Made by a program: the position numbers and the translations under genes
Part shown: piece after piece, positions 10,830 to 62,393 of the stretch
How the letters are laid out: the number at the start of each line of letters is the position of its first letter
Numbering within the stretch: the stretch's first letter is position 1
IMG/VR virus record: IMGVR_UViG_3300033077_000655
Strand: one strand, 5' to 3'
DNA: 64,000 nt
Source of the DNA: a virus
Taxonomy: Duplodnaviria; Heunggongvirae; Uroviricota; Caudoviricetes
The notes under the pieces: model-generated
Seen by the model: only the letters and a program-made list of their open reading frames with translations
What the model was told of the DNA's origin: nothing
Database searches by the model: none

Positions 10830-10838
10830 GAGGAAACT

Positions 10839-11063
10839 ATGGCTAAAATTATTATCAAAAGCAATCCACGTACTGAACAAACCTGGGAGGAACTGGATCA
10901 ATATCGTGAGTTTTGCGTAGACTACGGATACAAGTTCAATGAGGCGGATCTGTATAACTTCCGCAGTTATGCATTCCAACAGTTCAACAAACATACTCAA
11001 GGCAAGCCTGCCAAGAACATGTGGGATGAAGACACTCGTCGACTGGCAGGATACCGCACATGA
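10839..11063 (+). CDS. hypothetical small protein
   Basis: RBS aggaaact precedes the ATG. Confidence 0.35.
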   Translation: MAKIIIKSNPRTEQTWEELDQYREFCVDYGYKFNEADLYNFRSYAFQQFNKHTQGKPAKNMWDEDTRRLAGYRT

Positions 11064-12229: not shown

Positions 12230-12230
12230 A

Positions 12231-13761: not shown

Positions 13762-13762
13762 C

Positions 13763-14551: not shown

Positions 14552-14627
14552 CTCAAATTATGATAAAACTTAAAATTGGCTGCTGTAAAAACAGTGGTAT
14601 CAAACTACAACAAGAGTTTGCACCGCG

Positions 14628-19316: not shown

Positions 19317-20085
19317 ACTTGTAGACCGAATTAAACAGTATTGGAATACTCAGCCTTGCAACGTCAAGCACAGTCTTAGTGTTCCGGGCACAGAACAGTA
19401 TTGGAATGAAGTTTCCAAACGTAGATTCTTTGTAGAACCCCATCAATTTGACTTTGCTAGCTTTAATCTTTGGCACGGTAAACGTGTTTTAGAAATAGGA
19501 TCCGGAATCGGAACCCATGCTGTGGAGTTTGCACGTCACGGTGCTGACTATGTGGGGATCGATCTTTCAGCAGAGTCGGTGGCCATGAGTCAACAACGAT
19601 TTGAACTGTTTGGATTAACTGGCAAATTCCATGTGATGGATGGCGCCGACTCTGCTGCGGTTGCTGGTCTAGGAAAATTTGATCTAGTATACAGTTGCGG
19701 GGTATTGCACCACTATCCGGACATGACCGCTTGTTTGAATAACATCCATGCTGCATTAGTACCCAACGGAGAGTTCCGTATGTTGGTATACGCAAAGAAC
19801 TCATGGAAGTACGCCATGATCCAAAAAGGTCTAGATCAATTTGAAGCACAAGCAGATTGCCCGTATGCCAAGGCCTATAGCAAAGAAGAAATTTATGATC
19901 TCTTAAAAGGACAATTTGAGGTACAAAGCATTAGACAAGATCATTGTTTCATGTATAATGTAGTTAAGTATCGCACTGGCGAGTACGAATTGGAGCCTTG
20001 GTTTGCTGCCATGCCCGAAGACATGCGAGCAGCAGTTAAAGAATATCTAGGTTGGCATTTGTTAATTAAAGCACAAAAAATATGA
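19306..20085 (+). CDS. class I SAM-dependent methyltransferase
   Basis: VLEIGSGIGTHAVEF motif I and DLVYSCGVLHH. Confidence 0.65.
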   Translation: MKNELVDRIKQYWNTQPCNVKHSLSVPGTEQYWNEVSKRRFFVEPHQFDFASFNLWHGKRVLEIGSGIGTHAVEFARHGADYVGIDLSAESVAMSQQRFELFGLTGKFHVMDGADSAAVAGLGKFDLVYSCGVLHHYPDMTACLNNIHAALVPNGEFRMLVYAKNSWKYAMIQKGLDQFEAQADCPYAKAYSKEEIYDLLKGQFEVQSIRQDHCFMYNVVKYRTGEYELEPWFAAMPEDMRAAVKEYLGWHLLIKAQKI

Positions 20086-20945
20086 GCAAACTAAAAGTAG
20101 CAGAATTGTTTTACTCAATTCAAGGGGAAGGTAGATATATGGGGGTACCCAGCGTCTTCTTGAGAACTTTTGGCTGCAATTTTTCTTGCAAGGGCTTCGG
20201 CATGCCACGTGGCGAACTCAGCAAGGAAGCTGATGAAGTAGCAGTAATGAATGCCATGCATCGATTTGAGAAATATGAAGAACTTCCACTTGTTAGCACA
20301 GGATGTGACAGCTATGCTAGTTGGCATCCTGACTTCAAGAATCTAAGTCCCATGCTGACCAGTGATGCTATCGTAGATCGCATTATGGATATTATTCCGT
20401 ACAAAGAATGGCGTGACGAGCATCTTGTGATCACAGGTGGCGAGCCATTGCTAGGCTGGCAACGTGCATATCCTAGTTTATTAGACAATCCCAAGATGGC
20501 AAGTCTTAAAGAAATTACGTTTGAAACCAATGGTACTCAAGAACTCAGCACTGAGTTTAGAAAGTATTTGTTAAATTGGACACTAGGTAACAAGGCACGT
20601 GGCCGAGAAGCATTGACATTTAGTGTGAGTGCTAAACTGCCTTGTTCAGGTGAGAAGTGGTCGGATGCTATTTGTCCTGAGATTGTGTGTCAATATCAAG
20701 ATGTTGGGCACACATACTTGAAACTGGTAATTTCTACCAATGAAGATTTTGCAGATGCTCAACGTGCAGTGGCAGAATATCGTGCAGCTGGATTCAAGGG
20801 TCATGTGTATTTGATGCCTGTTGGTGGAGTTGAAAGTGTATATGCGTTGAACAATAAGAATGTAGCTATTTTGGCCATGAATCATGGTTGGCGTTACAGT
20901 GATCGACTTCAAGTACCATTGTTCAAGAACGAATGGGGCACCTGA
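20082..20945 (+). CDS. queE: 7-carboxy-7-deazaguanine synthase (QueE)-like radical SAM
   Basis: N-terminus AELFYSIQGEGRYMGVPSVFLRTFGCNFSC resembles QueE. Confidence 0.65.
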   Translation: MSKLKVAELFYSIQGEGRYMGVPSVFLRTFGCNFSCKGFGMPRGELSKEADEVAVMNAMHRFEKYEELPLVSTGCDSYASWHPDFKNLSPMLTSDAIVDRIMDIIPYKEWRDEHLVITGGEPLLGWQRAYPSLLDNPKMASLKEITFETNGTQELSTEFRKYLLNWTLGNKARGREALTFSVSAKLPCSGEKWSDAICPEIVCQYQDVGHTYLKLVISTNEDFADAQRAVAEYRAAGFKGHVYLMPVGGVESVYALNNKNVAILAMNHGWRYSDRLQVPLFKNEWGT

Positions 20946-27323: not shown

Positions 27324-28337
27324 ATGCGTAAGATGGCAACTATTCGACAAATTGATGCACTGAATCCTATTGAGGGTGCAGATGCTATTGAGTGCGCTAC
27401 CATTGGTGGATGGAAGGTAGTGGTAAAGAAGGGTGAGTTTGCGGTAGGCGACCGTGCAGTGTATTGCGAGATTGACTCTTGGATTCCCACCGAGATTGCA
27501 TCATTCCTAAGCAAGGGCAAGGAGCCTCGCGAGTTTGAAGGTATCCGCGGCGAACGTCTGCGTACTGTAAAGCTACGAGGCCAACTGAGCCAAGGTCTGC
27601 TGCTGAATCTTGATGATGTTATTCCACAAACCAATTCATTCGTCGAAGGTGATGATGTATCAGAACTGCTGAACATTGTGAAGTGGGAAATGCCCATGAA
27701 TGCACAACTAGCCGGAATGGCCAAGGGTAATTTTCCTTCTGAGATTCCCAAGACTGACCAAGAACGTGCGCAGAATCTTGTTGGAGAAATCCAGGCTGCT
27801 GCCGAAACAGGCACTGAGTTCGAAGTGACTGAAAAGCTAGAAGGCTCTTCAATGACTGTGTACTTGATTGATGGCGAGTTTGGTGTTTGCTCTCGCAACC
27901 TGGACCTTAAGGAAACTGAAGGCAATACATTTTGGCAAGTGGCACGGCGTGATGACATTGAGGCAAAGATGCGTTCAGTTGTTGGTACTGATTTTGCAAT
28001 TCAAGGCGAATTGATTGGCCCTGGAATTCAAGGCAATATCTACAAACTACGTGAACCAGAGTTCCGTGTGTTTGATATTTACAGCATTACTACAGGTGCT
28101 TATCTGTCTCCTCAAAAGCGCAGAGAACTAATTCGAAATCTTGGTCTACTCCATGTTCCTTTTATCTCTGTTGACAAAGACCTTGGTGTTGGCTCTATTG
28201 ACGAAATTCTTCAATGGGCAGAGGACATATCAATTTTAAATCCTACTGTACAGCGTGAAGGCATCGTGTTCAAGGAAGTGAATGGCGGCATGAGCTTCAA
28301 GGCAATCTCTAACAAGTACCTGCTGGGAGAAAAGTAA
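27324..28337 (+). CDS. ATP-dependent RNA ligase, second type (Rnl2/DraRnl-like)
   Basis: N-terminal OB-like IRQIDALNPIEGADAIECATIGGWKVVVKKGEF; nucleotidyltransferase motif I-like KLEGSS; 337 aa. Confidence 0.5.
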   Translation: MRKMATIRQIDALNPIEGADAIECATIGGWKVVVKKGEFAVGDRAVYCEIDSWIPTEIASFLSKGKEPREFEGIRGERLRTVKLRGQLSQGLLLNLDDVIPQTNSFVEGDDVSELLNIVKWEMPMNAQLAGMAKGNFPSEIPKTDQERAQNLVGEIQAAAETGTEFEVTEKLEGSSMTVYLIDGEFGVCSRNLDLKETEGNTFWQVARRDDIEAKMRSVVGTDFAIQGELIGPGIQGNIYKLREPEFRVFDIYSITTGAYLSPQKRRELIRNLGLLHVPFISVDKDLGVGSIDEILQWAEDISILNPTVQREGIVFKEVNGGMSFKAISNKYLLGEK

Positions 28338-35977: not shown

Positions 35978-37282
35978 ATGGAATTTTTTATAATATTTCT
36001 TGCAATTCCAATAGGACTCTTGGTAGGAATGTTGCCAGCAATAGGAGACAGCGTGATGATGATCATGCTATATCCATTTGTAGCACATTTAGAATTCAAC
36101 ACTTTGATTGCATTTTATGCTACTATGATCACGTGTGGGCAGTTTAGCTCAAGTGTAGTTGGGCTGTGGCTTGGCCTTGCTGGTGATGTCACAGCCATTC
36201 CAGTTCTTAAAGAACGACGAGAAATCATCAACTCCAACTTGTTATGGACTGCATTGTATAGGACCGGGCAGGCTAGTGCTATTGCCACGTTAGCATCTGT
36301 AGCAATGCTGAGCTTGTTAATTCAGTTTGGTACTGAATTTCGATATTTTCTTCGCACAGATGTATTTTTTGTCATTATAGTTATGGTAGCAGTTTCTGCA
36401 CTGGCTTGGTCTGGAAATAAATTCAAAACAAATTTACTATTGTGCTTGATTGGTCTAGTAGGTAGCTTGATTGGATACAATCAGTTTTTAGGTAAATCTA
36501 TCCTGACCATGGGGGTAGAATTTTTGGTCAATGGCTTGCCTTTCCTTCCTATACTGTTAGGCATGTATGCCATCCCTATGTTGTTTGCTGCCATGGCAGA
36601 TATGTCCAATGCAAGTCCAGTGGATCACACCAAAATTGATACTAGTCAACCTATACAATTAGTACCTGCAGCAGTGATGGCCCGAGGTACTATCATTGGA
36701 TTTTTAACAGGGCTATTGCCGTTGATTGGAGTAACAGTAAGTGCTGCTACTGCACATTTTGTTGAATCCAAAATCAAATCTAGCACAGCACTGACAAGAA
36801 TAAGTTCAGCAGAAGCAGCTGACAATGCGGCTGTGATATCTGTGCTGTTTCCATTATTGGTATTTGGTGTGGCAATACAACCAAGTGAGGCCATAGTGGT
36901 CAATTTGCTGACTGATCGCGGATGGTCAATTAACCAACTCAAAGCAGACACTTATTTGAAAATGGGCGTGGGTATATCAGTTGGAGTGGTGGCATGTCTT
37001 GCATTTTGTGTGCATTATATTGTTCAGATGATCAACTGGTTTACCAGATATTACCAATATGTATTTTATTTTATTTTTGCATTGATAGCATGTGATGTTT
37101 GGTATTTGGGCATGGACTCAGACCGATCAGTCTTTTACATGATTGTTTTTGCAATTTCCACGGTGGTGGGATATTTTTTGTACAAGAAAAAAATTGATCC
37201 AGTTCCAATGATTTTTGTATGGATGCTGGGTCCGTATTTTTGGCCGACTGCATATAGACTTTTACAGCTATATGTTTTATAA
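35978..37282 (+). CDS. polytopic membrane protein, TctA-family-like transporter subunit
   Basis: At least 10 hydrophobic segments; N-terminal GLLVGMLPAIGDS resembles the TctA GxLPGxG signature. Confidence 0.5.
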   Translation: MEFFIIFLAIPIGLLVGMLPAIGDSVMMIMLYPFVAHLEFNTLIAFYATMITCGQFSSSVVGLWLGLAGDVTAIPVLKERREIINSNLLWTALYRTGQASAIATLASVAMLSLLIQFGTEFRYFLRTDVFFVIIVMVAVSALAWSGNKFKTNLLLCLIGLVGSLIGYNQFLGKSILTMGVEFLVNGLPFLPILLGMYAIPMLFAAMADMSNASPVDHTKIDTSQPIQLVPAAVMARGTIIGFLTGLLPLIGVTVSAATAHFVESKIKSSTALTRISSAEAADNAAVISVLFPLLVFGVAIQPSEAIVVNLLTDRGWSINQLKADTYLKMGVGISVGVVACLAFCVHYIVQMINWFTRYYQYVFYFIFALIACDVWYLGMDSDRSVFYMIVFAISTVVGYFLYKKKIDPVPMIFVWMLGPYFWPTAYRLLQLYVL

Positions 37283-48783: not shown

Positions 48784-50310
48784 ATGTACAATGCTATACT
48801 TTTTACAGATCGAACCGACAACATATTTGGATCGGTCACTATTGGGGCATTTAAATGTGCTCATGTTTTAAGAAAACACGGATACTCGTGTTTGGTAGTC
48901 AATCATTATTCAGAATATACACATGAGGATCTGGTTGAACTTGTTGATTTAGCAGTGTCAGATCAAACTATCCTGATTGGGTTTAGTTCTACATATTTAA
49001 AAAATACTCAAATACAAAAACAAGTAGGAGAACCCACACCACCATATCCTGACATTGTTGATGACTCGGTATTCCCGCAAGGCAAAGATTTTGAAAATAA
49101 ATTTTTTGAATATTTGCATAAAACAAATAGCAAACTAAAAATCATAGTAGGTGGTACAAGGGTAACACAACAATATTCTAACAGGAATATTGACTATGCA
49201 TTTATTGGATATAGTGAAATATCTATAGTTAATCTAGCCAATCATCTGACCACCGGCGAACGCTTAGATAAAAGCAGTAAAAATATATACGGTGTGGTCA
49301 TCGTTGATGATCGATTTGCTCCTGCATATAATTTTAATAGTGAAGATATGAGTTGGGAAGCCACAGATATAGTGAATCATCACAGTCTTCCTATAGAAAT
49401 AGGTCGTGGATGTATTTTTAAATGCAAGTTTTGTGCCTTTCCGATGAATGGAAAACAAAATTTAGATTTTGTTAAAACTGCTGATATACTGGAAGCTGAG
49501 TTAAAAAACAACTACGATAGGTATGGTGTTCGACATTATCACATTGTGGATGATACCTTCAATGACCATATTGAAAAATTAGAATCTATACGTCGTGTGG
49601 TTGATCGTTTGAATTTTCAACCGGTATTTTGGGGGTATCACAGATTAGATCTACTGTGTACTAGACCAGAAACAGTAAAAATATTGCACGATATTGGTGT
49701 TAGATCAATGTATTTTGGCATTGAGACTTTGAATGAAAAAGCAGGAAAAATAATTGGTAAAGGATACAACAAATCACGTCAGATTGACATGATTCAAACC
49801 ATTCGCAATCAATATTCTGACATCTCAATGCACGGAAGTTTTATTCTAGGATTGCCCGAGGAGAGTATTGACAGCGTGTGGGAAACTCATAATAGTTTAA
49901 TAAGTCAACAGATTCCATTGCATAGTTGGATGTCAAATGGATTGCACATGTATAACAACGATAAATCTACATACGTCAGTGAGTTTGAAAAAAACTTTAC
50001 CAAATATGGGTATGTTGATATTGGCACTGATAATGAATCTAATTCAAGAAATTGGAAGAACAATTTTACTAACAGTGAAGAAGTCAGAGTATTGGCTGCA
50101 AAATTTACCAACGAATCTCGACGGTTACCAAATTTTATGCTGCCCGGGCATGATGCATTGGCTTTGTCAACATATGGCGTTGATTTTGATATATCACGAT
50201 TTACCCCATATCATCAATTTGATTTCCATGCTGTAGAGCACACTGTTAAACCAAATTTTGATAAAGAATATAAAAAACAATTGTTGAATCTTATTCAACA
50301 TTCTAAATAA
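48784..50310 (+). CDS. B12-binding-domain radical SAM protein (paralog 1)
   Basis: GRGCIFKCKFCAF (Cx3Cx2C); N-terminal Rossmann-like domain; paralog of 50508..52154. Confidence 0.7.
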   Translation: MYNAILFTDRTDNIFGSVTIGAFKCAHVLRKHGYSCLVVNHYSEYTHEDLVELVDLAVSDQTILIGFSSTYLKNTQIQKQVGEPTPPYPDIVDDSVFPQGKDFENKFFEYLHKTNSKLKIIVGGTRVTQQYSNRNIDYAFIGYSEISIVNLANHLTTGERLDKSSKNIYGVVIVDDRFAPAYNFNSEDMSWEATDIVNHHSLPIEIGRGCIFKCKFCAFPMNGKQNLDFVKTADILEAELKNNYDRYGVRHYHIVDDTFNDHIEKLESIRRVVDRLNFQPVFWGYHRLDLLCTRPETVKILHDIGVRSMYFGIETLNEKAGKIIGKGYNKSRQIDMIQTIRNQYSDISMHGSFILGLPEESIDSVWETHNSLISQQIPLHSWMSNGLHMYNNDKSTYVSEFEKNFTKYGYVDIGTDNESNSRNWKNNFTNSEEVRVLAAKFTNESRRLPNFMLPGHDALALSTYGVDFDISRFTPYHQFDFHAVEHTVKPNFDKEYKKQLLNLIQHSK

Positions 50311-50507: not shown

Positions 50508-52154
50508 ATGTTTAATAATAAAAAACCTAATGTTATTTTAATTACAGATTCTACTGATATAATTTCTTTAAACATTCTACTTGGGCCATTTAAAGTAGCA
50601 CATGTTCTTAAAGAGCATGGAATAGAAGTTGCAATGATACATCATGCATCAGCATTGTCATTTAAAGAAATAACTACTATTCTCAAAGAGATAATATCTG
50701 ATCAAACTTTGTTGGTGGGTATAAACAATTTCTATTATTCTTCCATTGAACTTAATAAAGATAATGGCAGTGATGGCATGACATTAAAAGAAATTGACCC
50801 AGGTAGTTTTTTACCTCATGGAAAAAGCAAAAATATTGAGTTAAAAACACTGATTAAATCATTGAATCCCAAAACCAAAATAGTGCTTGGCGGTGTGACT
50901 GCATTAGATACCAAGTACAACAAAGATTTTGATTATCTTGTGTTAGGATACGCCGAAACTGCAATATTGGATCTGGTGGATCATCTTAGGTCATCGTCTC
51001 CTATAGAAAAAAGTTATAAAAGTATCTATGGGCCAATAGTGCTGACAGACAAGGTAGCGTCTAGATATGATTTTTCATCATCCCATATGCGGTATGATCC
51101 AGACTGGTCAATACTGCCTGGATCAACATTTCATCTAGAATTAGGTCGTGGATGCATTTTTAAATGTGCATTTTGCGCTTATCCTTTCAATGGAAAAAAG
51201 AAAACTGATTATATTAGATCAAAAGAATCTATTCAGGCTGAGATGATAGACAATTACAACAGATTTGGTGTCACACGTTATTTGATGGGTGACGATACGT
51301 TTAACGACAACGTTGATAAATGCCGAATGATTTATGAAATATCCCAAGAACTTCCATTTAAATTAGAGTACTGGGCGTATTTGAGATTAGACCTGCTGAC
51401 GGCACATCCTGAAACAATAGATTATTTGTTTGACAGCGGCTTAAAAGCGGCGTTTTTTGGTATTGAAACTCTGAACCCCAAGACTGCATCTATAATAGGC
51501 AAAGGTGGCAATCGAGATAAAATGTTTAAAACTATAGCTGATATTAAATCTAAGTGGGGTGATTTAGTTTCGTTAGCCGCTGGGTTTATTTATGGATTAC
51601 CCGAAGAAGATTTAGATAGCCTACAACGCACAACTGATTTTTTGATCAGTGACCAAAACAAACTAGATCAGTGGCTAGTTGAAGCTTTAAACATACGCCC
51701 TACCGTTGATTATGATAATAGCTTTATCAGCGATATAGAAAAAAATTATGAAAAATATGGTTATAGTAAAATAGACAACCACACTCGTCCAGGTGGGTCC
51801 AATATAGGCACTGATCGCCGACGACATGCTATAGTCTGGAAGAATAAACACACAGACTATTACTCTGTTTTAAACATTACCGAAGCACTGAATGCTAGAA
51901 TAAAACCACACTTGAAAATTCCCGGCGATGCGGCTCTCCTGTTGAGTGGGCTAGGCATAGATTTAGACCAACTATTAAACAAACAACATGACCAAGTGCC
52001 GTGGAATAAACTAGATCAACTACATTTAAAAAAAGTTTTTGAGTATAAAAAACTCTTAGCTAAGAATTTAAATTTTGATATTAATCTCATTGACATGAAA
52101 ATTTTGCATCACAAAACGTACGGTAATTATCTCAAAGCAATGTTTGAAAAATAA
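50508..52154 (+). CDS. B12-binding-domain radical SAM protein (paralog 2)
   Basis: GRGCIFKCAFCAY; domain order as in 48784..50310. Confidence 0.7.
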   Translation: MFNNKKPNVILITDSTDIISLNILLGPFKVAHVLKEHGIEVAMIHHASALSFKEITTILKEIISDQTLLVGINNFYYSSIELNKDNGSDGMTLKEIDPGSFLPHGKSKNIELKTLIKSLNPKTKIVLGGVTALDTKYNKDFDYLVLGYAETAILDLVDHLRSSSPIEKSYKSIYGPIVLTDKVASRYDFSSSHMRYDPDWSILPGSTFHLELGRGCIFKCAFCAYPFNGKKKTDYIRSKESIQAEMIDNYNRFGVTRYLMGDDTFNDNVDKCRMIYEISQELPFKLEYWAYLRLDLLTAHPETIDYLFDSGLKAAFFGIETLNPKTASIIGKGGNRDKMFKTIADIKSKWGDLVSLAAGFIYGLPEEDLDSLQRTTDFLISDQNKLDQWLVEALNIRPTVDYDNSFISDIEKNYEKYGYSKIDNHTRPGGSNIGTDRRRHAIVWKNKHTDYYSVLNITEALNARIKPHLKIPGDAALLLSGLGIDLDQLLNKQHDQVPWNKLDQLHLKKVFEYKKLLAKNLNFDINLIDMKILHHKTYGNYLKAMFEK

Positions 52155-53048: not shown

Positions 53049-53633
53049 ATGAAAGAAATTATGAAAATTAATCTACGTAAAGCCAACGCATTGCAACTGA
53101 GTGTTCAGGAAGCAATCAAAGGTATCAAATTTGATACCGAAGTCAAGATCAACGAATTTCAAGTGGCAGAAGATGTGATTGCCAAGGCACGTGAAGACTT
53201 TGCCGTGAAGCAAGAACGGCACCGTGGGCTGCTAAACAGCCTGTACGATATCCGCAAGGCAGTGAGCCAGGCTAATAGTGCCCAAGGTGTAGATGTCAAG
53301 CTGGCCGATGTGGCCTTGATGGACAAGAAGATCCAGTACCTGGCTGATCTAGCCGGCAAAAGTACACGTGACAGCGCAGAGGTTGTGGCCGGTAAGATGG
53401 AAAAATTGCGTAATCGCAAGGAAAGCAACAGCTCTTTGTACTACGGGCACGATGCCACTGTGGACACTTCTATCTTTACTCAAGAAGATATCACAGGATT
53501 CCGTACAGCAGTGAGCCTGGGCAAGAAAGCCAAACAGAAGTTGCAAGACGAATTGTTGGAGATCAATGTTCGTACCGAGATTGAGCTTGGTGCTGATGCG
53601 GTTACTGTGTTGACTACAGAAGGTCTTCTATAG
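53049..53633 (+). CDS. hypothetical protein
   Basis: ORF; predicted helical. Confidence 0.4.
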   Translation: MKEIMKINLRKANALQLSVQEAIKGIKFDTEVKINEFQVAEDVIAKAREDFAVKQERHRGLLNSLYDIRKAVSQANSAQGVDVKLADVALMDKKIQYLADLAGKSTRDSAEVVAGKMEKLRNRKESNSSLYYGHDATVDTSIFTQEDITGFRTAVSLGKKAKQKLQDELLEINVRTEIELGADAVTVLTTEGLL

Positions 53634-53898
53634 GCCCAAGCCTGTGAAGAATGTTTGTTGCTCGAGTTCTAAGTCTCATTGAGAATTCGGCCTCGGTCAA
53701 CACACCTTTTGCTAGATTACACTTACGGCAAGTCACTTGTAGATTGTGGTAAGTGGTTGAGCCACCTTTTGATTCAGGAACCACATGATCCATATGGATC
53801 TCAGAATCAGACAGGTCCTCGTCACAGTACACACAACGCAAGCCATCGCGTTCAATGATTCTGCGACGAAGATTCAATGGGATACGTTGTTTTAGCAT
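53614..53898 (-). CDS. HNH endonuclease (McrA-like)
   Basis: CVYCDEDL...HMDHVVPESKGG...NLQVTCRKCNLAKG. Confidence 0.6.
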   Translation of the reverse strand: MLKQRIPLNLRRRIIERDGLRCVYCDEDLSDSEIHMDHVVPESKGGSTTYHNLQVTCRKCNLAKGVLTEAEFSMRLRTRATNILHRLGPIEDLL

Positions 53899-54409: not shown

Positions 54410-55273
54410 TCAATGTTGATTCATAATGTACCACAGTGGAAGATCGGATCCGTATAACTTCCATAGTGTTGAATAATACTCGTAAGATTTCAAGTGACAA
54501 TATATCTCTTGCGGAACGTCTAAGGTTGAAGAAAAAGGTTTTTCCACCAATAACGGAATATTATAAACTGAATCAGTTAGTCTAGAGAATAGTACATTTT
54601 CAACTGTTGCAAATCTAAAAAGTTTAGGACTGGCTGGGTTGTCGTCTGGATTATCAAGTATTTCAAAATTAAAATTTAAAGAATCTATCCAGTGTCGATC
54701 TAGTATTTTTTTAACGTAGCCACGTTTAAATAATCCAGCACCACCAAAATCATCCCATCGTCTTTTTCGCAATTGCAGAGTTGGTATTTCAAATTTGCTT
54801 GGATCATGAGCCAATACAGAATTGTTGGTCAATCCTGCTGACCAATTGTTAATACGTACCAGTTGTATACATTCCCACTCTTGAGGTAAATTATCTAGTA
54901 ATTCTTGCCAGGTAAAACTCCAGTGATCAATGCTTTCAAAACTCATGTCGTCATCGCAAAATATTGCATATTCTTCATTGGTGTTGTCATACCAATGGCG
55001 CATTGCAGTCAAGTAACTGATAACTGTGCCCGGATGGCTGAATCCTTGAAACATAGCAGCATGCTGGTGTGTAATGTCAGGCCATGTAATATTAACGTTA
55101 TGTGCAAACACAGTGTACCTGTTATTCAACCATATCATGTAATATATACCATATCTAGTCAACTGCTCATTCATGAACTCCATTCGAGCCACGTTTTCGT
55201 AAAGAGTGATATAATTTACAGCAGGGAAGTTAGTTAGCTTGGTCATAATGTAAGCATATTTATTTCCGTGCAT
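54410..55273 (-). CDS. hypothetical protein (possible GT-A-like, CDDD motif)
   Basis: 287-aa ORF on the minus strand, between tRNA genes. Confidence 0.4.
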   Translation of the reverse strand: MHGNKYAYIMTKLTNFPAVNYITLYENVARMEFMNEQLTRYGIYYMIWLNNRYTVFAHNVNITWPDITHQHAAMFQGFSHPGTVISYLTAMRHWYDNTNEEYAIFCDDDMSFESIDHWSFTWQELLDNLPQEWECIQLVRINNWSAGLTNNSVLAHDPSKFEIPTLQLRKRRWDDFGGAGLFKRGYVKKILDRHWIDSLNFNFEILDNPDDNPASPKLFRFATVENVLFSRLTDSVYNIPLLVEKPFSSTLDVPQEIYCHLKSYEYYSTLWKLYGSDLPLWYIMNQH

Positions 55274-55293: not shown

Positions 55294-55365
55294 CTCTGCA
55301 TAGTTCAATGGATAGAACAAGTCTTTCCTAAAGACAAAATATCAGTTCAATTCTGGTTGCAGAGA
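55294..55365 (+). tRNA. tRNA-Arg (CCT)
   Basis: Perfect acceptor CTCTGCA/TGCAGAG; D arm GTTC-AATGGATA-GAAC; anticodon loop TTCCTAA; T loop TTCAATT. Confidence 0.65.
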
Positions 55366-55370
55366 CCACA

Positions 55371-55441
55371 GCTCTTATAGTATAATGGCAATACACGTCC
55401 TTGGTAAGGACGAGTTACAAGTTCGATTCTTGTTAGGAGCA
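55371..55441 (+). tRNA. tRNA-Thr (GGT)
   Basis: Acceptor GCTCTTA/TAGGAGC; anticodon arm CGTCC-TTGGTAA-GGACG; T arm ACAAG-TTCGATT-CTTGT. Confidence 0.8.
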
Positions 55442-55480
55442 CCAGTGCACCACTAAGTACACACAATCAAGGAGATAGTT

Positions 55481-55585
55481 ATGCCAAGTCCACGTAGAGC
55501 AAGTCAAATCCTCAAAGGTAAAAAACCACCAAAACCCAAGACCATGAAAGCCATGGCCAAACGTGTGGTACGAAAGAAAAAGTAA
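55481..55585 (+). CDS. small basic protein (34 aa)
   Basis: RBS aaggagatagtt-ATG; sequence MPSPRRASQILKGKKPPKPKTMKAMAKRVVRKKK; its stop overlaps the next start (TAATG). Confidence 0.3.
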   Translation: MPSPRRASQILKGKKPPKPKTMKAMAKRVVRKKK

Positions 55586-56814
55586 TGAGCAAACTCCTAT
55601 TAGAAATGGGTGATCACTGCGTAAGTGATTTTATCAAGAATGATAGTGAAGGCCTAGGCCGTAAAAAATACAGTCTAGACCTATACCAAGATGATCGGTT
55701 TGGCGCTGTTCGTCTTCACGGTGTTGCACCAGCAGATACCATGTGGGGTCAATATTGGTATCGCAGCGGTATCAACGCCAGCATGACTAAAGAATTGCAA
55801 GGCATTGTTGCAGAAGTAACTTCAAGGGTAAAGACCAAAGCCGGTGATATTTGGCTGGACATTGCATGCAATGACGGTACACTATTAAAAAGTGTGCCCG
55901 ATAACATGATCAAAATTGGTATTGATCCAGCCGACGACAGCTTCCGTAGTGAAAGCACCCGGGTTGCGCATGAAGTTGTTCAAGAATATTTCAGCTATGA
56001 TGCCTGGCAGAAAACAGGGTATGGGCATGCCAAAGCCAAGATCATTACTTGCATTGCAATGTTCTATGACTTAGATGATCCAGTTCCATTCATACAGGAT
56101 TTGTACCGTGTGCTGGATGACAATGGAACGTTGGTATTACAGATGAGCCATACCCCATTGATGGTGAAGCAGCTGGCATTTGACAATATCTGCCACGAAC
56201 ACGTTTACTACTATGATCTCAAGAGTATCACTAGACTATTTGCTGAAAATGGATTCAGGGTAGTTGATTGCAGTCTCAATGACACCAACGGTGGCAGCTT
56301 CAGAGTATATCTTCAGAAGGATGTGGCAGAAGTTTCTAGCTTTGCCACAGCACCCTTGCGTGATGTATGCAACTTTAGAGTCAATAGCATTCTTGCATAT
56401 GAAAGAGTAGAGAACGATATCACTGATCCCAAAACATGGAAATTGTTCGGCGATCGACTTGTTGTGCTAAAGGAACAAGTTGTTTCTTTTGTTCATCAGG
56501 CTGTGAAACAAGGAAAAACAGTTTATGGTTATGGAGCAAGCACCAAGGGCAATACACTGCTGCAATACTTTGGGCTGGACCATAATTATATCACTGCTAT
56601 TGCAGAACGCAGCCCTTACAAATTTGGCATGAAGACCATTGGTACCAACATTCCAATCATCAGTGAAGAAGAAATGCGTGTGGCCAAGCCAGACTACATG
56701 TTGGTATTGCCTTGGCACTTTATCAACGAATTTGAACAGCGTGAACAAGATTACTTGAAATCTGGTGGTACATTCATTGTTCCTTGTCCTGCATTTAGAT
56801 TGGTCACTGCATAG
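55585..56814 (+). CDS. SAM-dependent C-methyltransferase (NDP-hexose C-methyltransferase, TylCIII-like)
   Basis: WLDIACNDGTLL (motif I), IAMFYDLDDP, and a C-terminal YGYGASTKGNTLLQYF block typical of the C-methyltransferase C-terminal domain. Confidence 0.6.
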   Translation: MSKLLLEMGDHCVSDFIKNDSEGLGRKKYSLDLYQDDRFGAVRLHGVAPADTMWGQYWYRSGINASMTKELQGIVAEVTSRVKTKAGDIWLDIACNDGTLLKSVPDNMIKIGIDPADDSFRSESTRVAHEVVQEYFSYDAWQKTGYGHAKAKIITCIAMFYDLDDPVPFIQDLYRVLDDNGTLVLQMSHTPLMVKQLAFDNICHEHVYYYDLKSITRLFAENGFRVVDCSLNDTNGGSFRVYLQKDVAEVSSFATAPLRDVCNFRVNSILAYERVENDITDPKTWKLFGDRLVVLKEQVVSFVHQAVKQGKTVYGYGASTKGNTLLQYFGLDHNYITAIAERSPYKFGMKTIGTNIPIISEEEMRVAKPDYMLVLPWHFINEFEQREQDYLKSGGTFIVPCPAFRLVTA

Positions 56815-56817
56815 TCT

Positions 56818-57771
56818 ATGAACAAGATAGTTTTTTTCAATTTCTTCCATAATGGCGATTGTTTTGTCACTAAAGAATATGTGAGAGATATAATTTCAAA
56901 GTTGCCTGAGATTGAATTTGAATATGCACACAACAATCATGACAACATAATATGTGATTTAGATTGCAAACATGTGCCAATAACCAGTATGCCAGATCGA
57001 TTTGATCTAACATATTATGGCATGCCTGATCAATCAGCGCCTATTCCGTATCACATGCCCATGTTGGTTGATACATTGACTGACACAGTTTACATCAATA
57101 CATGGGTTGGGAGTTTTCAGGATCTTCCCAAATGGGGCAGGCACGCCAATTTTACAACTTTTCCACATATGTGGAAGGAAATATATGACTACTTGAAAAT
57201 TCCAATGGTTGGTGACTATACCTGCTATCAGCCTGAGATACGATTTGACCAATGTAATATATCACATGCTCAAAAATATCTCTCGAACATAGGTCATGCA
57301 CCATTAGTTGTGTTCTGTAATAATAATGTTTTGAGCAGACAGAGTGATATGGGTGATATGGAGAAGATCATTGACAATATCTCTTCACAGTTTCCCGATC
57401 ACCAATTTTTGGTCACAGACAGAGTCAATGTACACAAATCAAATGTGAAATATTCTGAAGATGTGCTCAACGGGATTGTGGGAAACTTAAATCAAATTTC
57501 ATACATAACACATGCTGCCAAACTGATTGTTGGAAAGAACAGCGGACCATTCTCATATGCTCACACTAGATCAAATATGACCGATCCACACAAGACCTTC
57601 ATGTGTTTTAGCAAACAGATAGCTGAGTGTTTGATGGGCGGTGGCGAATACTTGGCAAATAGTTATTTTAGCAACAGTACAGATGATACAGTAGCCAGCG
57701 ATATTATCTCAAAATTAATCTCAAATCCAATCCGTAATCCTGTAGCCAAACCTACGCAATACATATCATGA
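56818..57771 (+). CDS. hypothetical protein
   Basis: ORF within the sugar-modification gene run. Confidence 0.4.
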   Translation: MNKIVFFNFFHNGDCFVTKEYVRDIISKLPEIEFEYAHNNHDNIICDLDCKHVPITSMPDRFDLTYYGMPDQSAPIPYHMPMLVDTLTDTVYINTWVGSFQDLPKWGRHANFTTFPHMWKEIYDYLKIPMVGDYTCYQPEIRFDQCNISHAQKYLSNIGHAPLVVFCNNNVLSRQSDMGDMEKIIDNISSQFPDHQFLVTDRVNVHKSNVKYSEDVLNGIVGNLNQISYITHAAKLIVGKNSGPFSYAHTRSNMTDPHKTFMCFSKQIAECLMGGGEYLANSYFSNSTDDTVASDIISKLISNPIRNPVAKPTQYIS

Positions 57772-58430
57772 AAATTATTTTGCAAAATTGTTATGCAGAC
57801 AATTATCTTTCTCTAGGAAATTTAACTTGGCACAAAAATAAAGTTGCATATGCAGCTAAACATGGATACGACACTAGATTAAACATCTACCAGAATGAAG
57901 CTGATACCCCACATCCACTATCATTTTATGGATTTAAAAAGATATATCATCTACAGAAAATTTTCATTGAGGACAATCCCGATTGGGTTTGGGTAACAGG
58001 TTGTGATTCTTTAATCACAAACTTTAATATAAAATTAGAATCAATCATTGATGAAAATTTTCATTTCATTATTGCAAAAGATGTGAATGGAATTAACATG
58101 GATAGTTTTCTAGTTAAAAATTCTCATGAGGGTAGATCTTTCATAGACCTCATTGCGTCAAGCTATGAAAAATATAAAGATCATTCTTTAGCCGAGCAAG
58201 GATGTGTGATTGATAATCTAAAAGAATTTAACAATATTATAAAAATAGTTCATCAAAAAACTTTTAATTCATATAATTATGAAATTATGTATAATCAAGG
58301 AATTATTCACCATCCTCCTCCATGGGAAGGGATGTGGGAACATGGGGATTTATTAATTCATTGGCCTGCAATGCAATTGTATAGAAGATTGCAATTGGCT
58401 GAAGAATATTCTCAACACGTCATATTATGA
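57768..58430 (+). CDS. hypothetical protein
   Basis: ORF with ATGA overlap. Confidence 0.4.
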   Translation: MKIILQNCYADNYLSLGNLTWHKNKVAYAAKHGYDTRLNIYQNEADTPHPLSFYGFKKIYHLQKIFIEDNPDWVWVTGCDSLITNFNIKLESIIDENFHFIIAKDVNGINMDSFLVKNSHEGRSFIDLIASSYEKYKDHSLAEQGCVIDNLKEFNNIIKIVHQKTFNSYNYEIMYNQGIIHHPPPWEGMWEHGDLLIHWPAMQLYRRLQLAEEYSQHVIL

Positions 58431-59251
58431 AAATCTTTATCACAGGATCAACTGGATTTATAGGCCTAAACTTAATTAGATTCTACAAAAAAACAAACAA
58501 TATCACTGAGTACAAACGTGGCGAATGTCTTTCGACTGCATTAAATAATTGTTGTCCAGATTTAATTTTTCATTGTGCAGGTGAGATTTATAAAGATGAT
58601 CTTATGATATCAACTAACGTCCTTATGACTAAAGATATTCTTGAGTACGTTAAATTAAATCCAAAAACTAAACTGATATACACAGGGTCAAGCAGTGAAT
58701 ATGGCAAAGTTCCTAGAGCAAGTGTAGAAACTGATAGGATAAATCCTGTAGATATGTATCAAGCAACCAAAGGCGCTGCTACACTATTGTGTCAAGGTTA
58801 TGCCAGACATTATGAGTTAGACATAAAGATTGCAAGACCATATAGTGTATACGGAAGATTTGAAAGAAATCACAGGCTATTTCCTACTATGTGGAGATCA
58901 TTTTTTAAAGATGAGCCGATGACACTTTGGCAAGGATATCATGATTTTATTTACATAGATGACTTTATTCGCGGCTTAGATATTATTGCTACCTCTGGAA
59001 AGAATCCTGGTGATATCATTAATTTAGGTTCAGGAATACAATCACCCAACTTTGGCGAAAACGGTGTCTATGATATCTTTAAAGAGTTGACCAATCGTCG
59101 AGGCAATGTTAAAATAATACACCATCTAAGTAAGAATTTTGAATCGGAAGTATGGCAATGCGATACTGCATATTCCAAAAGTGCATATGCGTTTGAAGCA
59201 GAATACACATTGAGAGATGGCATCAAAGAATTTTTAGAATACACAAAATAA
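58427..59251 (+). CDS. NAD-dependent epimerase/dehydratase (SDR family)
   Basis: MKIFITGSTGFIGLNL (GxxGxxG) and YQATK (YxxxK). Confidence 0.7.
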   Translation: MKIFITGSTGFIGLNLIRFYKKTNNITEYKRGECLSTALNNCCPDLIFHCAGEIYKDDLMISTNVLMTKDILEYVKLNPKTKLIYTGSSSEYGKVPRASVETDRINPVDMYQATKGAATLLCQGYARHYELDIKIARPYSVYGRFERNHRLFPTMWRSFFKDEPMTLWQGYHDFIYIDDFIRGLDIIATSGKNPGDIINLGSGIQSPNFGENGVYDIFKELTNRRGNVKIIHHLSKNFESEVWQCDTAYSKSAYAFEAEYTLRDGIKEFLEYTK

Positions 59252-59261
59252 GGAAAATAAC

Positions 59262-59834
59262 ATGACAAAATTTGGACAAAACGAAGCAGTGAAAATTGAT
59301 TGGGCACATGCAGGCCTCTTAGAGGGACTGGTATCATCTAGTAAACCTAAAAAAATTCTAGAACTCGGAGTTGGCGGTGGACGTAGTTTAGAAAGTATTC
59401 TGAAAGGGATAGAATACAATAGTCAACCTTATGAATATACATTAGTTGATAATTGGGGAGACTGGGGAGGTGTTATGCCGCCCGAGGTAACAGAGTTATA
59501 TCAAGAGAAAGTCCATAATATAATTACAAGCGACGAAAAAGATTTTGTGTTTTCTTGTCAAGAAAAATTTGATTTTATTATGAGCGATGCTGATCACTAT
59601 CGAGCAGATCAGTGGTTTGAATACGTATACAATAACTTATTAAACGATAATGGTATATTGATTTATCACGACGTGAATATGGATGACCATTGGCATGCTG
59701 GTAATTTCTTCAATTTAAGAAATATATACAAAGCTGTTAAAACTAAAAAAATTAGTCATCGGTTGTTTAATGTAAGCTCTTTACCAGAAGAACAATGCGA
59801 ACGCGGACTGTTAGTTATTTTTAAGAATAGCTGA
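59262..59834 (+). CDS. class I SAM methyltransferase (O-methyltransferase-like)
   Basis: ILELGVGGGRSL motif I; DADH. Confidence 0.5.
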   Translation: MTKFGQNEAVKIDWAHAGLLEGLVSSSKPKKILELGVGGGRSLESILKGIEYNSQPYEYTLVDNWGDWGGVMPPEVTELYQEKVHNIITSDEKDFVFSCQEKFDFIMSDADHYRADQWFEYVYNNLLNDNGILIYHDVNMDDHWHAGNFFNLRNIYKAVKTKKISHRLFNVSSLPEEQCERGLLVIFKNS

Positions 59835-59875
59835 TATGAGAAAAGTTTGTTCTTTAATGAAACAATAATGAAAGA

Positions 59876-60490
59876 TTGATCATGCATCAAATTGAAAAAA
59901 GAATCGTAGATATTACATATCAAGAGAAGTTATGTCATCTAAGTAGTTGTCTTAGTGCCTGGCCTATAATTCATGAAATTTACAATATCAAAAAAGACGA
60001 TGAAGTATTCATCCTTAGCAATGGTCATGCTGGTCTAGCACTATATTGTGAACTTGAATTTAGATATGGAATTGATCCTGTTATGCTTCTTCATAAGCAT
60101 GGAATTCACCCAGGAAAAGATTTAGAGAACAAACTATATTGCTCTACAGGAAGTTTAGGGTCCGGCCTTCCAATTGCGGTAGGCCATGCATTGGCTAATA
60201 AAGATAAATCCGTTTACTGTATAATTAGTGATGGCGAATGCGCCGAAGGCAGTATTTGGGAATCTCTTGCATTTATTAACAAACAAAAACTTAATAATAT
60301 TCATGTTTATGCAAATATCAATGGTATGGGTGCATATGAGTACATTGACGTTGAGAATCTGTCAGATAGACTTCGAGCGTTCTTGCCCACAATTACTTTA
60401 AGAATAAGTGTGCCAATTGATTTGGGATTCACAAAAGGTCTTGAATCTCATTACCACATAATTAAACCTGAAGAGTACAATACATTATGA
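59876..60490 (+). CDS. transketolase N-terminal (TPP-binding) subunit
   Basis: LSNGHAGLALY, GSLGSGLPIAVGHALA and ISDGECAEGS motifs. Confidence 0.7.
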   Translation: MIMHQIEKRIVDITYQEKLCHLSSCLSAWPIIHEIYNIKKDDEVFILSNGHAGLALYCELEFRYGIDPVMLLHKHGIHPGKDLENKLYCSTGSLGSGLPIAVGHALANKDKSVYCIISDGECAEGSIWESLAFINKQKLNNIHVYANINGMGAYEYIDVENLSDRLRAFLPTITLRISVPIDLGFTKGLESHYHIIKPEEYNTL

Positions 60491-60972
60491 GAAAAACATG
60501 CATGAATCTTCTGTCGCAAAAGATGACAGAAAACAAAGATGTGATTTTGCTTACCGCAGATTTAGGTTTTGGATTGCTAGACGTAGTGCGTGATGCACAT
60601 CCAGACAGATTCTATAATGTTGGTGCAGCAGAACAATTACTAATTGGTGCTGGTGTAGGACTTGCCGAACAAGGCAAGATTCCTGTTTGTTATAGCATGA
60701 GTAGTTTTGTTTTATATCGTCCATTTGAATTCTTACGCAACTATCTTAATGCAGAAAACATTCCAGTTAAACTTATTGGAAGTGGAAGAGATAAAGATTA
60801 CTCGCATGATGGACTATCACATTGGGCACATGATGCAGATGAAGTTCTGGCATGTTTACCAAACATTAAAATATACAAGCCACAATCTTTAGTAGAGTTA
60901 ACAGATCAATTTGACGACTTTATAAACAATAAAAGTCCATCGTTTCTAAGCCTAACTAGAAAAGTTTTTTAA
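60487..60972 (+). CDS. transketolase C-terminal (pyrimidine-binding) subunit
   Basis: GAGVGLAEQGKIPV...HDGLSHWAHDADEVLACLPNIKIYKP. Confidence 0.65.
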   Translation: MRKTCMNLLSQKMTENKDVILLTADLGFGLLDVVRDAHPDRFYNVGAAEQLLIGAGVGLAEQGKIPVCYSMSSFVLYRPFEFLRNYLNAENIPVKLIGSGRDKDYSHDGLSHWAHDADEVLACLPNIKIYKPQSLVELTDQFDDFINNKSPSFLSLTRKVF

Positions 60973-60978
60973 GAATCC

Positions 60979-61368
60979 ATGGAAAAACTATCAATTAAAA
61001 TTCCAGTCTCTCTTGGTGAACTTGTCGATAAAATCACTATTCTCAGAATCAAGCAAGCGTGTATGACCGACGCAGAAAAACTTTTCAATGTAACGCATGA
61101 GTATAATATGCTTGTTGCTATTCCAGAATACGTAGCAGTCAAAGACACAATCGCAGAACATGAAGAAGCTTTGCATAAAGTAAATCAGCGTCTTTGGTTT
61201 TACGAAGACGACATTCGAGACTTTGATAAGATGCAAAGCCCAAACACCACTTCATACATGCAAGTCGCAAGAGGCATTCATATCACAAATGATGAACGAA
61301 GCAGAATCAAAAAAGCAATCAACATTATGTGTAATTCAGAACTGGTTGAAGAAAAATCTTATGAGTAA
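60979..61368 (+). CDS. hypothetical protein
   Basis: ORF. Confidence 0.35.
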   Translation: MEKLSIKIPVSLGELVDKITILRIKQACMTDAEKLFNVTHEYNMLVAIPEYVAVKDTIAEHEEALHKVNQRLWFYEDDIRDFDKMQSPNTTSYMQVARGIHITNDERSRIKKAINIMCNSELVEEKSYE

Positions 61369-61418
61369 TGTCGACATATTATAAATATATGTAACATAAA
61401 TTAATACAAGGATTTAAA

Positions 61419-61988
61419 ATGACTTCACCCATACTTTTTACTGATCATATATTGGCATTTTTTAAAAATAATTTGCTCAATCTCAATTCAAACTATTTAG
61501 AGATTGGAGTTTACTTTGGCATAAGCATATCAGAATTGGCTAATGAATTCCCAAACAAGAAAATTTTTGCCATTGATCCTTTCATTGAAGATGGAAATAC
61601 ATCTTGGCACAGCGGGATCACACATACTGAACAATTGAACACACAACGTACACATGCCCTTAAATTAGCCGAATCTAAAACTAATCTTAAACTTTTTGAG
61701 ATGACCAGCCAAGAATTTTATAATACCTTGACTGAAGAACAAATTCAACTGATGAATGTAGGCGCTGTCTTTATTGACGGAGACCATCATTATGAACATG
61801 CTACCATTGATTACAAATTGGCTTTGGCATTAATTGGTAAAAAGCAAGGTCTTATTGTATTTGATGATGATAACATAGATTCCGTTAGAAGAGCTATGGA
61901 TGAGTTTGAACTAGCAGCTCGAGATATAATTACAGAAAAGATTCCCCTTCCTAGAACTTCTACTGCTTATAGATTAAACTCACTCTAA
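61419..61988 (+). CDS. class I SAM methyltransferase-like (CmcI/O-MT family 3-like)
   Basis: LEIGVYFGISI...IFAIDPF...FIDGDHHYEH. Confidence 0.5.
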   Translation: MTSPILFTDHILAFFKNNLLNLNSNYLEIGVYFGISISELANEFPNKKIFAIDPFIEDGNTSWHSGITHTEQLNTQRTHALKLAESKTNLKLFEMTSQEFYNTLTEEQIQLMNVGAVFIDGDHHYEHATIDYKLALALIGKKQGLIVFDDDNIDSVRRAMDEFELAARDIITEKIPLPRTSTAYRLNSL

Positions 61989-62085
61989 ACTTCCTATCTA
62001 TGGTGTGTGTTCAGATTATATAGAAACTATATTGTCTAAATAAATATATGAATAGTCGTAATCCCTTCAAAACAAAGGAATCCAA

Positions 62086-62366
62086 GACTCGGGGGCAGTG
62101 CCCGAATGGTCCACCAGAAGCATAATCGATTGGCTCAGAGCCAGTTGAGACATAAGAAACATGATTGTGCTTTTGATGGGCCATACACAGGATCGATTGG
62201 GTTAGATAGTGGCGACGGCGACTCGGTAGGCGATGACCGTTAATCAAGCGAAACCTATAAATGCCAACGACAGCGTTTATTCCTTAGCTGCCTAAACTCA
62301 GCTTAGGGTAGTTATACCTCGTAACAGAAAATAACAGAAGCCCGCTTCGGCGGGCTTTCTTTTGAC
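62086..62366 (+). ncRNA. ssrA: candidate tmRNA (ssrA)-like RNA with tag reading frame ANDSVYSLAA-stop; architecture unresolved
   Basis: Sits in a 380-bp non-coding gap. GCC AAC GAC AGC GTT TAT TCC TTA GCT GCC TAA at 62263-62295, preceded by CTATAAAT. Upstream ...GGTCCACCA at 62112-62120. Ends in a strong terminator. Confidence 0.5.
62338..62364 (+). terminator. intrinsic terminator
   Basis: AAGCCCGC-TTCG-GCGGGCTT followed by TCTTTTG. Confidence 0.8.
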
Positions 62367-62393
62367 TGTTATTTTTGATCACTATATACTAGC

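Follow-up and report, generated by a model that had tools for sequence, protein, structure and literature searches.

Enzymes that build branched sugars with the help of thiamine diphosphate (ThDP) are known from bacterial antigen and antibiotic pathways. In the yersiniose (YerE/YerF) and paulomycin (Pau11/Pau12 with Pau7) systems, a ThDP enzyme acts with a short-chain dehydrogenase/reductase (SDR) near a 4,6-dehydratase, methyltransferases, and glycosyltransferases. YerE is a flavoenzyme of the acetolactate-synthase type; the Pau and Avi enzymes are homologues of the pyruvate dehydrogenase E1 alpha and beta subunits. For paulomycin, a C4-hydroxyethyl octose has been described. Truncated transketolases, of one or two domains, have been reported as well. 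Some lie among glycosyltransferase, methyltransferase, and epimerase genes in a hypervariable glycan island of SAR11/Fonsibacter, where a role in the pentose-phosphate pathway was deemed uncertain (PMC6811365); others, from the prasinovirus MpV-SP1, were read as Calvin-cycle or pentose-phosphate genes (PMC5454428). Here we describe a two-gene "mini-transketolase" and the sugar genes around it in a 64,000-nucleotide stretch of phage DNA, the window, from IMG/VR record IMGVR_UViG_3300033077_000655. The genes belong to a block that an earlier note, made from the letters alone, had singled out as one co-oriented sugar-tailoring cluster.

The two genes encode separate halves of a transketolase, as that note had predicted: a ThDP-binding subunit with the PP domain, followed by a subunit with the Pyr domain. 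The PP half matches NF004559 (8.6e-23) and PF00456; the Pyr half matches PF02779 (1.2e-16) and the structure 6yaj (1.4e-15). With a profile of the PP family, the best matches are the split transketolase 6yak (3e-25) and human TKT (5e-22), with DXS reached only at about 1e-5. Acetolactate-synthase and benzoylformate-decarboxylase families match roughly 35-75 residues around the ThDP motif only, at E-values of 4e-5 or weaker, and E1 families likewise match only around that motif (about 1e-3 to 1e-5).

Both subunits are short: about 202 residues for PP and about 160 for Pyr (161 here). The PP homologues have 202 residues, which makes the ATG at 59882 a likelier start for this gene than the TTG at 59876. 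There is no match to the third transketolase domain (PF02780, Transketolase_C); the Pyr half stops at residue 161, after ...LTRKVF, where that domain would start, and the gene that follows encodes a DUF6165 protein. The halves score 80.4 and 50.5 bits in NCBIfam against an NF004559 equivalog cut-off of 488 bits, and other transketolase models score lower. The mini-transketolase is thus a distinct, truncated transketolase-type family and no housekeeping enzyme: its truncation, its scores, and its linkage to SDR and methyltransferase genes all separate it from the Tkt of primary metabolism.

Across 74 homologues of the PP half, the following residues are invariant or nearly so: H21, H51, and H78; a GSLG motif; S118-D119-G120; N149; and H192. 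The SDG...N of this subunit aligns with the GDGE...NG of 6yak and human TKT, and H21, H51, and H78 align with the canonical sGH, skGH, and gHP motifs. The invariant H192 lies outside the aligned stretch and would be the equivalent of H261 in Escherichia coli transketolase, whose catalytic PP-domain histidines are H26, H66, H100, and H261. Conservation of the Pyr half was scored in 79 sequences: E49 and H112 are present in all of them, R2 in 78, R158 in 76, and D108 in 75. E49 and the DGxxH motif align with GIAEQ and EDGASHQ of 6yaj. The substrate-phosphate site of the E. coli enzyme consists of R358, S385, H461, and R520; the equivalents of both arginines (R2 and R158) are retained, and by inspection of the 6yaj alignment the Ser385 and His461 equivalents fall opposite glycine. 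Because the catalytic, ThDP/Mg, activating glutamate, and arginine residues are invariant or nearly so, the mini-transketolase is very likely, judged from its sequence, an active ThDP enzyme with carbanion chemistry.

This family is large. Homologues of the PP half fall into more than 3000 clusters, nearly all with proteins of about 202 residues (about 71-78% identity among the 120 listed) and labeled at most, and occasionally, with a generic "transketolase"; 105 representatives at the 50% identity level match at E<1e-30. No close homologue is present in 50,697 deposited phage records, where tblastn with the PP half finds only matches below 37% identity, mostly to short unannotated records or to genes annotated as ordinary transketolases. 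A scan of one genome per species (185,579 species) yielded six loci, all in metagenome-assembled genomes (MAGs), with clade-specific patterns that would miss more distant cellular relatives. IMG/VR gave 136 confirmed matches. The best 80 of these were analyzed; they reduce to 71 non-redundant viral loci, in which open reading frames (ORFs) were called and clustered.

In all 71 of these loci the Pyr gene directly follows the PP gene. A short extended SDR, here termed SDR273, lies at most four genes upstream of the transketolase in 57 of 58 viral loci, and a methyltransferase of the FkbM or Methyltransf_24 type stands between the two in 51 of 57. Other associations are frequent: a GT34 glycosyltransferase at most four genes upstream (45 of 58), and a dTDP-glucose 4,6-dehydratase (PDB 2hun, 3.4e-59) at most three genes downstream (46 of 64). 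Occasionally the PP subunit is fused to Methyltransf_23 or Methyltransf_24 domains. The SDR-transketolase trio, with or without the FkbM methyltransferase, is kept in distant MAG loci at 40-50% identity and in L100, a 39-kb contig that bears terminase and portal genes. There, positions 6897-14773 encode an SDR, the mini-transketolase, a CTP_transf_like protein, an FkbM methyltransferase, and a GT1 glycosyltransferase; this cassette follows a Laminin_G_3 protein and precedes a protein of at least 1791 residues. Linkage as well conserved as this speaks strongly against a function in housekeeping or in the pentose-phosphate pathway, a point on which the earlier note had staked its reading. As a separate observation, some PP genes (P0261, P0288, and P0298) were called as fusions with HNH/NUMOD4 homing-endonuclease domains, which suggests endonuclease insertions beside the cassette.

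In the window, the SDR273 protein matches PF01370 (1.4e-30) and, more weakly, the NCBIfam model for ADP-heptose 6-epimerase (1.6e-11); its weak PDB matches are UDP-GlcA 4-epimerase (6zl6, 2e-18) and dTDP-glucose dehydratases. The GxxGxxG motif, the serine, and YxxxK (Y111, K115) are invariant among 66 homologues. In place of the STDEVYG of dehydratases (as in the dehydratase family f3), SDR273 carries SSSEYG (S88-S89-S90-E91-Y92). Because the Asp-Glu pair of 4,6-dehydratases is missing, its sequence marks it as a probable reductase or epimerase and sets it apart from 4,6-dehydratases, so that the prediction of an SDR epimerase/dehydratase holds for the extended SDR fold and falls for the dehydratase. 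Through its C-terminal substrate domain SDR273 resembles enzymes of nucleoside diphosphate (NDP)-sugars, and at least one step therefore would use a nucleotide-sugar.

Two Methyltransf_24 proteins accompany it. Between SDR273 and the transketolase, where the type of methyltransferase varies among loci, the window has MT24a; MT24b belongs to a family with 22 ORFs that adjoin the transketolase in related loci. They carry the motifs DADH and DGDH, respectively, which resemble the DADK motif of cation-dependent O-methyltransferases. PDB sequence searches with the two proteins returned nothing. The two or three methyltransferases expected earlier come down to these two and the C-methyltransferase described below; neither of the two matched the Pfam CmcI or TylF families, to which the earlier note had likened them. 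Nor are these three enzymes of the DNA or RNA type: the DNA-methylase motifs (D/N/S)PP(Y/F/W), including DPPY, and PCQ/ENV are absent from all of them, and the only contrary hint is a partial match of MT24b (5.9e-8) to a PHROG labeled DNA methyltransferase. The GT34-like protein matches PF05637 at 2.8e-15 (57.2 bits; gathering cut-off 23). Its DxD-type motif reads G-C-D, and across 52 homologues the motif is E/G-x-D, with only the last aspartate invariant.

The block is not one pathway for one sugar, as had been supposed. It is two modules joined: module B, with GT34, SDR273, a methyltransferase, and both mini-transketolase subunits, and module A, with a sugar C-methyltransferase, a GT9-like transferase, and DUF6165. 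Relatives carry the modules separately; a C-methyltransferase of the window type occurs in 3 of the 71 cassette loci, and the combination of A and B is rare. GC content is 29-38% over 57.7-62.0 kb (from the GT34 gene through MT24b, including DUF6165) versus 42-50% in the flanks. Moreover, one related locus, L007, is about 90% identical in nucleotide sequence to 57767-59269 and 59853-60972, with other genes between these stretches. From the drop in GC and the L007 identity, it appears that module B entered a module A by insertion or recombined with one. The low GC over 57700-62000 is also consistent with recent acquisition.

The module A C-methyltransferase matches PF08484 (1.7e-42, residues 234-402) and PF13489 (5.5e-15), along with the D-mycarose 3-C-methyltransferase 4rv9 (7.6e-38) and TcaB9 (6e-28), and alignments with 4rv9 and 3ndi, and with TcaB9 and MycC-type enzymes, span almost the whole protein; the TylCIII-like assignment thus stands. 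The active-site set of TcaB9 comprises Tyr76, His181, Tyr222, Glu224, and His225. The Glu-His pair is retained (CHEH opposite YDEH of TcaB9), as is the tyrosine of the YxY (YPY-type) motif; the position of H181 is occupied by Asp and that of Y222 by Cys. The protein begins at the equivalent of TcaB9 residue 26 and has no match to PF08421, the N-terminal four-Cys zinc domain: both CxxC pairs are missing, the second falling opposite D..F. By sequence, the protein is best called a divergent member of the TylCIII/TcaB9 family.

Three genes of the block had gone unnoticed beside the enzymes named earlier, all of which are present: the GT34-like gene of module B, a GT9-like gene, and the DUF6165 gene. 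The GT9-like protein has the GT-B fold and is nearest to heptosyltransferases, with 7-12% identity in structural alignments; it has no Pfam match (PF01075 included) or NCBIfam match at E 0.01 or better. In relatives, module A runs in the order GDP-mannose 4,6-dehydratase (Gmd; PDB 6gpj, 1.6e-127), DUF6165, C-methyltransferase, and then one or two GT9-like genes. The unit also occurs on its own in T4-like contigs, and the C-methyltransferase invariably comes with both DUF6165 and a GT9-like transferase. In a Cellvibrio lipopolysaccharide (LPS)-core locus (CP101662.1, L097 10001-11466), the DUF6165 gene lies directly upstream of a true GT9 heptosyltransferase; from this adjacency, the real partner of DUF6165 seems to be a GT9-type transferase. 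Partnership with GT9 enzymes may hold for the DUF6165 family in general.

The block itself, with its borders, is laid out in the table. Its nine ORFs, tightly packed on one strand as first described, are spaced -4 to +50 nucleotides apart, with three ATGA-type overlaps (57768/57771, 58427/58430, and 60487/60490); the first start (55585) and the last end (61988) agree with the extent proposed for the cluster. Inside the block, promoter and terminator scans gave counts no higher than shuffle expectation, so the operon structure is supported by gene spacing only; at the right edge the terminator scan found a strong hairpin (62337-62358). A megablast search of deposited phages with the entire block gave no match. 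The source of the window is a very large phage, whose family-B DNA polymerase shares 42-49% identity with the polymerases of jumbo phages such as Phosso and Atu_ph07 (350-490 kb).

Table. Genes of the sugar-tailoring block and the features that flank it (positions in the window)
Feature	Positions	Strand	Place	Basis
GT25-like glycosyltransferase, divergent	54410..55273	-	left flank, possibly associated	phrog_2835, cyanomyovirus tblastn
tRNA-Arg(CCT) and tRNA-Thr(GGT)	55294..55444	+	left block boundary	ARAGORN, Rfam
NDP-hexose C-methyltransferase, TylCIII/TcaB9 type, probably, no N-terminal zinc ribbon	55585..56814	+	module A	Pfam, PDB
GT-B fold glycosyltransferase like GT9 heptosyltransferases	56818..57771	+	module A	fold
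GT34-like GT-A glycosyltransferase	57768..58430	+	module B	PF05637
Short extended SDR (SDR273), probable reductase or epimerase	58427..59251	+	module B	PF01370
MT24a, Methyltransf_24 class I S-adenosylmethionine (SAM) methyltransferase	59262..59834	+		PF13578 4.4e-9
Mini-transketolase, ThDP/PP-domain subunit	59876..60490 (probable start 59882)	+		NF004559, PF00456
Mini-transketolase, Pyr-domain subunit	60487..60972	+		PF02779
DUF6165 helical protein, partner of GT9-type transferases	60979..61368	+	module A remnant	Pfam
MT24b, second Methyltransf_24 methyltransferase	61419..61988	+		PF13578 2.5e-11; weak PF01596 O-methyltransferase 0.008
tmRNA	62007..62386	+	right block boundary	ARAGORN tag ANDSVYSLAA; Rfam beta_tmRNA 125 bits

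Counting the flanking GT25-like gene, whose product matches phrog_2835 "glucosyltransferase" (2e-21) and, at 25-29% identity in tblastn, genes of cyanomyoviruses that carry the annotation glycosyltransferase family 25, the block carries two, perhaps three, glycosyltransferases. It therefore makes sugars and also attaches them. These results support a sugar-pathway block, concerned neither with nucleic-acid methylation nor with central metabolism. We tentatively favor, at somewhat short of an even chance, the following overall reading: the block is an island of glycan-building genes in a huge phage, put together from two mobile modules, and in it the ThDP enzyme of module B is dedicated to a sugar pathway and works by a branching mechanism.

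Observed are the gene identities, folds, conserved catalytic residues, gene order, and modular origin; we infer what the enzymes act on, that a branch is formed, how the reactions follow one another, and which acceptor receives the sugar. Module A most likely would C-methylate an NDP-4-keto-6-deoxyhexose and then transfer the product; the substrate is probably GDP-4-keto-6-deoxymannose, since relatives carry Gmd just upstream. In module B, the mini-transketolase would form a ThDP-bound two-carbon carbanion and add it to the carbonyl of a nucleotide-sugar intermediate, which in most relatives would be dTDP-4-keto-6-deoxyglucose from the adjacent dehydratase. The resulting keto group would be reduced by SDR273; a hydroxyl would then be methylated by the methyltransferase; and the GT34 enzyme would attach the branched or extended methylated sugar to its acceptor. 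A two-carbon branch would be a plausible product, and this branching model explains the frequent dehydratase neighbor, the SDR, and the methyltransferase fusions.

As to the acceptor, we lean slightly toward a virion protein rather than the host envelope. The L100 cassette, amid structural genes, hints at virion glycosylation, and TibC-like folds suggest glycosylation of protein; envelope glycans are suggested by the Cellvibrio LPS link and by the report of a SAR11 surface island (PMC6811365).

Several observations weigh against the branching model. The canonical transketolase residues are conserved, down to the two arginines that bind phosphate, which fits ordinary ketol transfer between sugar phosphates equally well. 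None of the most distant loci (L089-L094, L099, and L100) has the 4,6-dehydratase, which therefore lies outside the invariant core. Enzymes of the acetolactate-synthase type (YerE) and of the E1 type are known to carry out ThDP-dependent addition to a ketone; we know of no transketolase that does. Finally, no 4,6-dehydratase or nucleotidyltransferase for either module is present within the window, so the block cannot build its sugars from scratch with window genes. With neither 4,6-dehydratase at hand, the keto-sugars have to be supplied by the rest of the phage genome or by the host. (The only other SDR of the window, at 12228-13184, was considered for the missing dehydratase and rejected: its motifs SSSASVYG and YGESK read as those of a GalE-like epimerase, and it is only 23% identical to the f3 dehydratase.)

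The main rival is that the mini-transketolase performs its textbook ketol transfer. Sugar phosphates would be converted to xylulose-5-phosphate, sedoheptulose-7-phosphate, or an octulose phosphate, which would then be nucleotide-activated, reduced by SDR273, and methylated to give an NDP-alditol, heptose, or octose, much as in the route from CDP-xylulose to CDP-arabinitol or in heptose pathways. Beyond the conserved residues, with the equivalents of R358 and R520 for substrate phosphate and of D469, this proposal draws on the invariant core, which consists of SDR, transketolase, and methyltransferase only, with no dehydratase. It also draws on neighbors that would favor activation of a transketolase-made sugar phosphate: a CTP_transf_like gene right after the transketolase in L100, and a fusion of an APH kinase with an NTP-transferase, plus a cupin isomerase, near the L096 cassette. 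GT9-like (heptosyltransferase-like) genes and DUF6165 are frequent in these islands, and the weaker match of SDR273 to ADP-heptose 6-epimerase points the same way. Yet in most loci, the window included, no nucleotidyltransferase, kinase, or GmhA-type isomerase stands close to the cassette, and the Ser385 and His461 equivalents of the phosphate site do not align as conserved when the alignment is inspected. The host, moreover, already has a housekeeping transketolase, which makes the strict coupling of the viral copy to an SDR and a methyltransferase hard to explain, and methyltransferase fusions would be odd for an enzyme of central sugar phosphates. We regard ketol transfer as possible, though on the unlikely side.

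Improbable, in our view, is a role of the two genes as an auxiliary metabolic pair that would strengthen the pentose-phosphate pathway of the host during infection and merely lie beside unrelated sugar genes. The best database matches are indeed transketolases, with catalytic residues intact, and similar viral genes have been annotated as pentose-phosphate or Calvin-cycle enzymes (PMC5454428). Such a pair would not be expected to keep near-invariant linkage to SDR273 and a methyltransferase over loci diverged to 40-50% identity, to have its PP subunit fused to methyltransferases, or to have lost the C-terminal domain and shortened the PP domain, with scores far below equivalog cut-offs; nor do the neighborhoods inspected contain other pentose-phosphate genes. 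Chen et al. likewise expressed doubt that the truncated transketolases of the SAR11 glycan island serve the pentose-phosphate pathway (PMC6811365).

That the sugars are hypermodifications of phage DNA bases, a target the earlier note had proposed, is highly improbable and nothing in the block points there: DNA modification is common in large phages, the FolE, QueD-like, and radical-SAM genes of the window suggest 7-deazaguanine chemistry, and MT24b has its weak partial PHROG match, but the three transferases (GT9-like, GT34-like, and GT25-like) resemble polysaccharide or protein glycosyltransferases, the larger window ORFs scanned include no Pfam-identifiable hydroxymethylase, DUF6165 is paired with an LPS-core GT9 gene in Cellvibrio, the L100 cassette sits among structural genes, and the methyltransferases have no DNA-methylase motifs.

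To return to the branching model for module B, its broadest form is that the SDR273-methyltransferase-mini-transketolase trio constitutes an undescribed, mainly viral pathway, in which the transketolase acts on a nucleotide-sugar to yield a two-carbon-branched or extended methylated sugar on the virions or infected hosts of many uncultured phages. We offer this as a speculative proposal, rather doubtful as it stands. If it is true, glycan enzymes, and not pentose-phosphate enzymes, are what a large part of the "transketolase" auxiliary metabolic genes called in viromes encode. Automated pipelines call these genes pentose-phosphate auxiliary metabolic genes, a reading that their context argues is wrong. 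The family is large and coherent, carries no assigned reaction, and could reveal new sugar chemistry. Because the same kind of truncated transketolase occurs in a cell-surface hypervariable island of freshwater SAR11, its product may matter for phage-host recognition among abundant aquatic bacteria.

Other parts of the window deserve brief mention. Thirty-six tRNA genes lie within 32920-55444, mostly in arrays interleaved with ORFs at 42.7-55.4 kb; the best-scoring model for the tmRNA is that of Betaproteobacteria (125 bits), a possible hint to the host. Inside the tRNA array are two paralogous radical-SAM proteins (48784-50310 and 50508-52154, 35% identical), the second with a sub-threshold B12-binding match; a third radical-SAM protein (16459-18465) has a significant B12-binding domain. 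All three could be RNA or sugar methylases. Near the tRNA region are an RNA ligase (27324-28337; PF09414 with a PHA02142 OB domain) and a small HNH endonuclease (53614-53898). GTP cyclohydrolase I (13763-14551), a QueD-like PTPS (15113-15586), and a radical-SAM protein (20082-20945) point to a 7-deazaguanine pathway of the preQ0 type that may serve to modify DNA or tRNA. A "first" sugar cluster (11060-13761) encodes a GT1-like transferase, a GalE-type-looking SDR (true start probably Met28, at about 12228), and a DegT/EryC1-like fragment of 198 residues, far shorter than a normal aminotransferase. The phage also encodes a membrane subunit of a TctA-family tripartite tricarboxylate transporter (35978-37282; 1.5e-39).

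How, then, does the block compare with described systems? With the 3-C-methyltransferases TylCIII, TcaB9, and KijD1, the module A enzyme shares the SAM-binding and C-terminal Methyltransf_14 domains; unlike them it has no zinc ribbon, and its relatives are linked to GDP-mannose dehydratase instead of a dTDP pathway. Its GT-B partner is like the GT9 heptosyltransferases WaaC, WaaF, and TibC by fold, not by sequence membership in PF01075.

The split transketolase of Carboxydothermus hydrogenoformans (6YAJ/6YAK) and human-type TKT are the closest matches to the mini-transketolase in sequence. The catalytic set is common to all, and two genes in the order PP then Pyr are common to the split enzyme. 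The solved chains have 309 and 341 residues, compared with about 202 and 160 in the window, where SDG also replaces GDG; and the mini-transketolase belongs to a viral glycan cassette, whereas these enzymes belong to central metabolism. YerE/YerF and Pau11/Pau12 with Pau7 follow the same logic as module B. The suggested likeness to the yersiniose system holds as an analogy of this kind and does not extend to enzyme family: the YerE type is a single chain with Pyr, middle (FAD), and PP domains, whereas the window enzyme is of the transketolase type, in two chains, PP then Pyr. From the Pau and Avi enzymes, too, it is set apart by its transketolase type, a distinction drawn from the family to which those enzymes are assigned.

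The SAR11/Fonsibacter and MpV-SP1 reports define neither an SDR-methyltransferase-transketolase cassette nor a reaction, and the likeness to them is one of description. Literature searches turned up nothing relevant on transketolases of O-antigen clusters or on phages that combine a transketolase with a C-methyltransferase. Nucleotide-sugar tailoring and glycosyltransferase clusters are common to the window and to the glycan or LPS-like islands of cyanomyoviruses, giant viruses, and huge phages; the 735-kb phage LR756501, for example, has a C-methyltransferase 58% identical to that of the window and a homologue of the GT9-like protein. The mini-transketolase sets the window apart from those islands, being found in none of the deposited phage records. 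Sugar-tailoring islands of large phages and giant viruses are already known, and the block as a whole is unsurprising in their company. What is new is the definition of a conserved cassette, the evidence for a dedicated sugar-pathway enzyme within it, and the modular history of the block.

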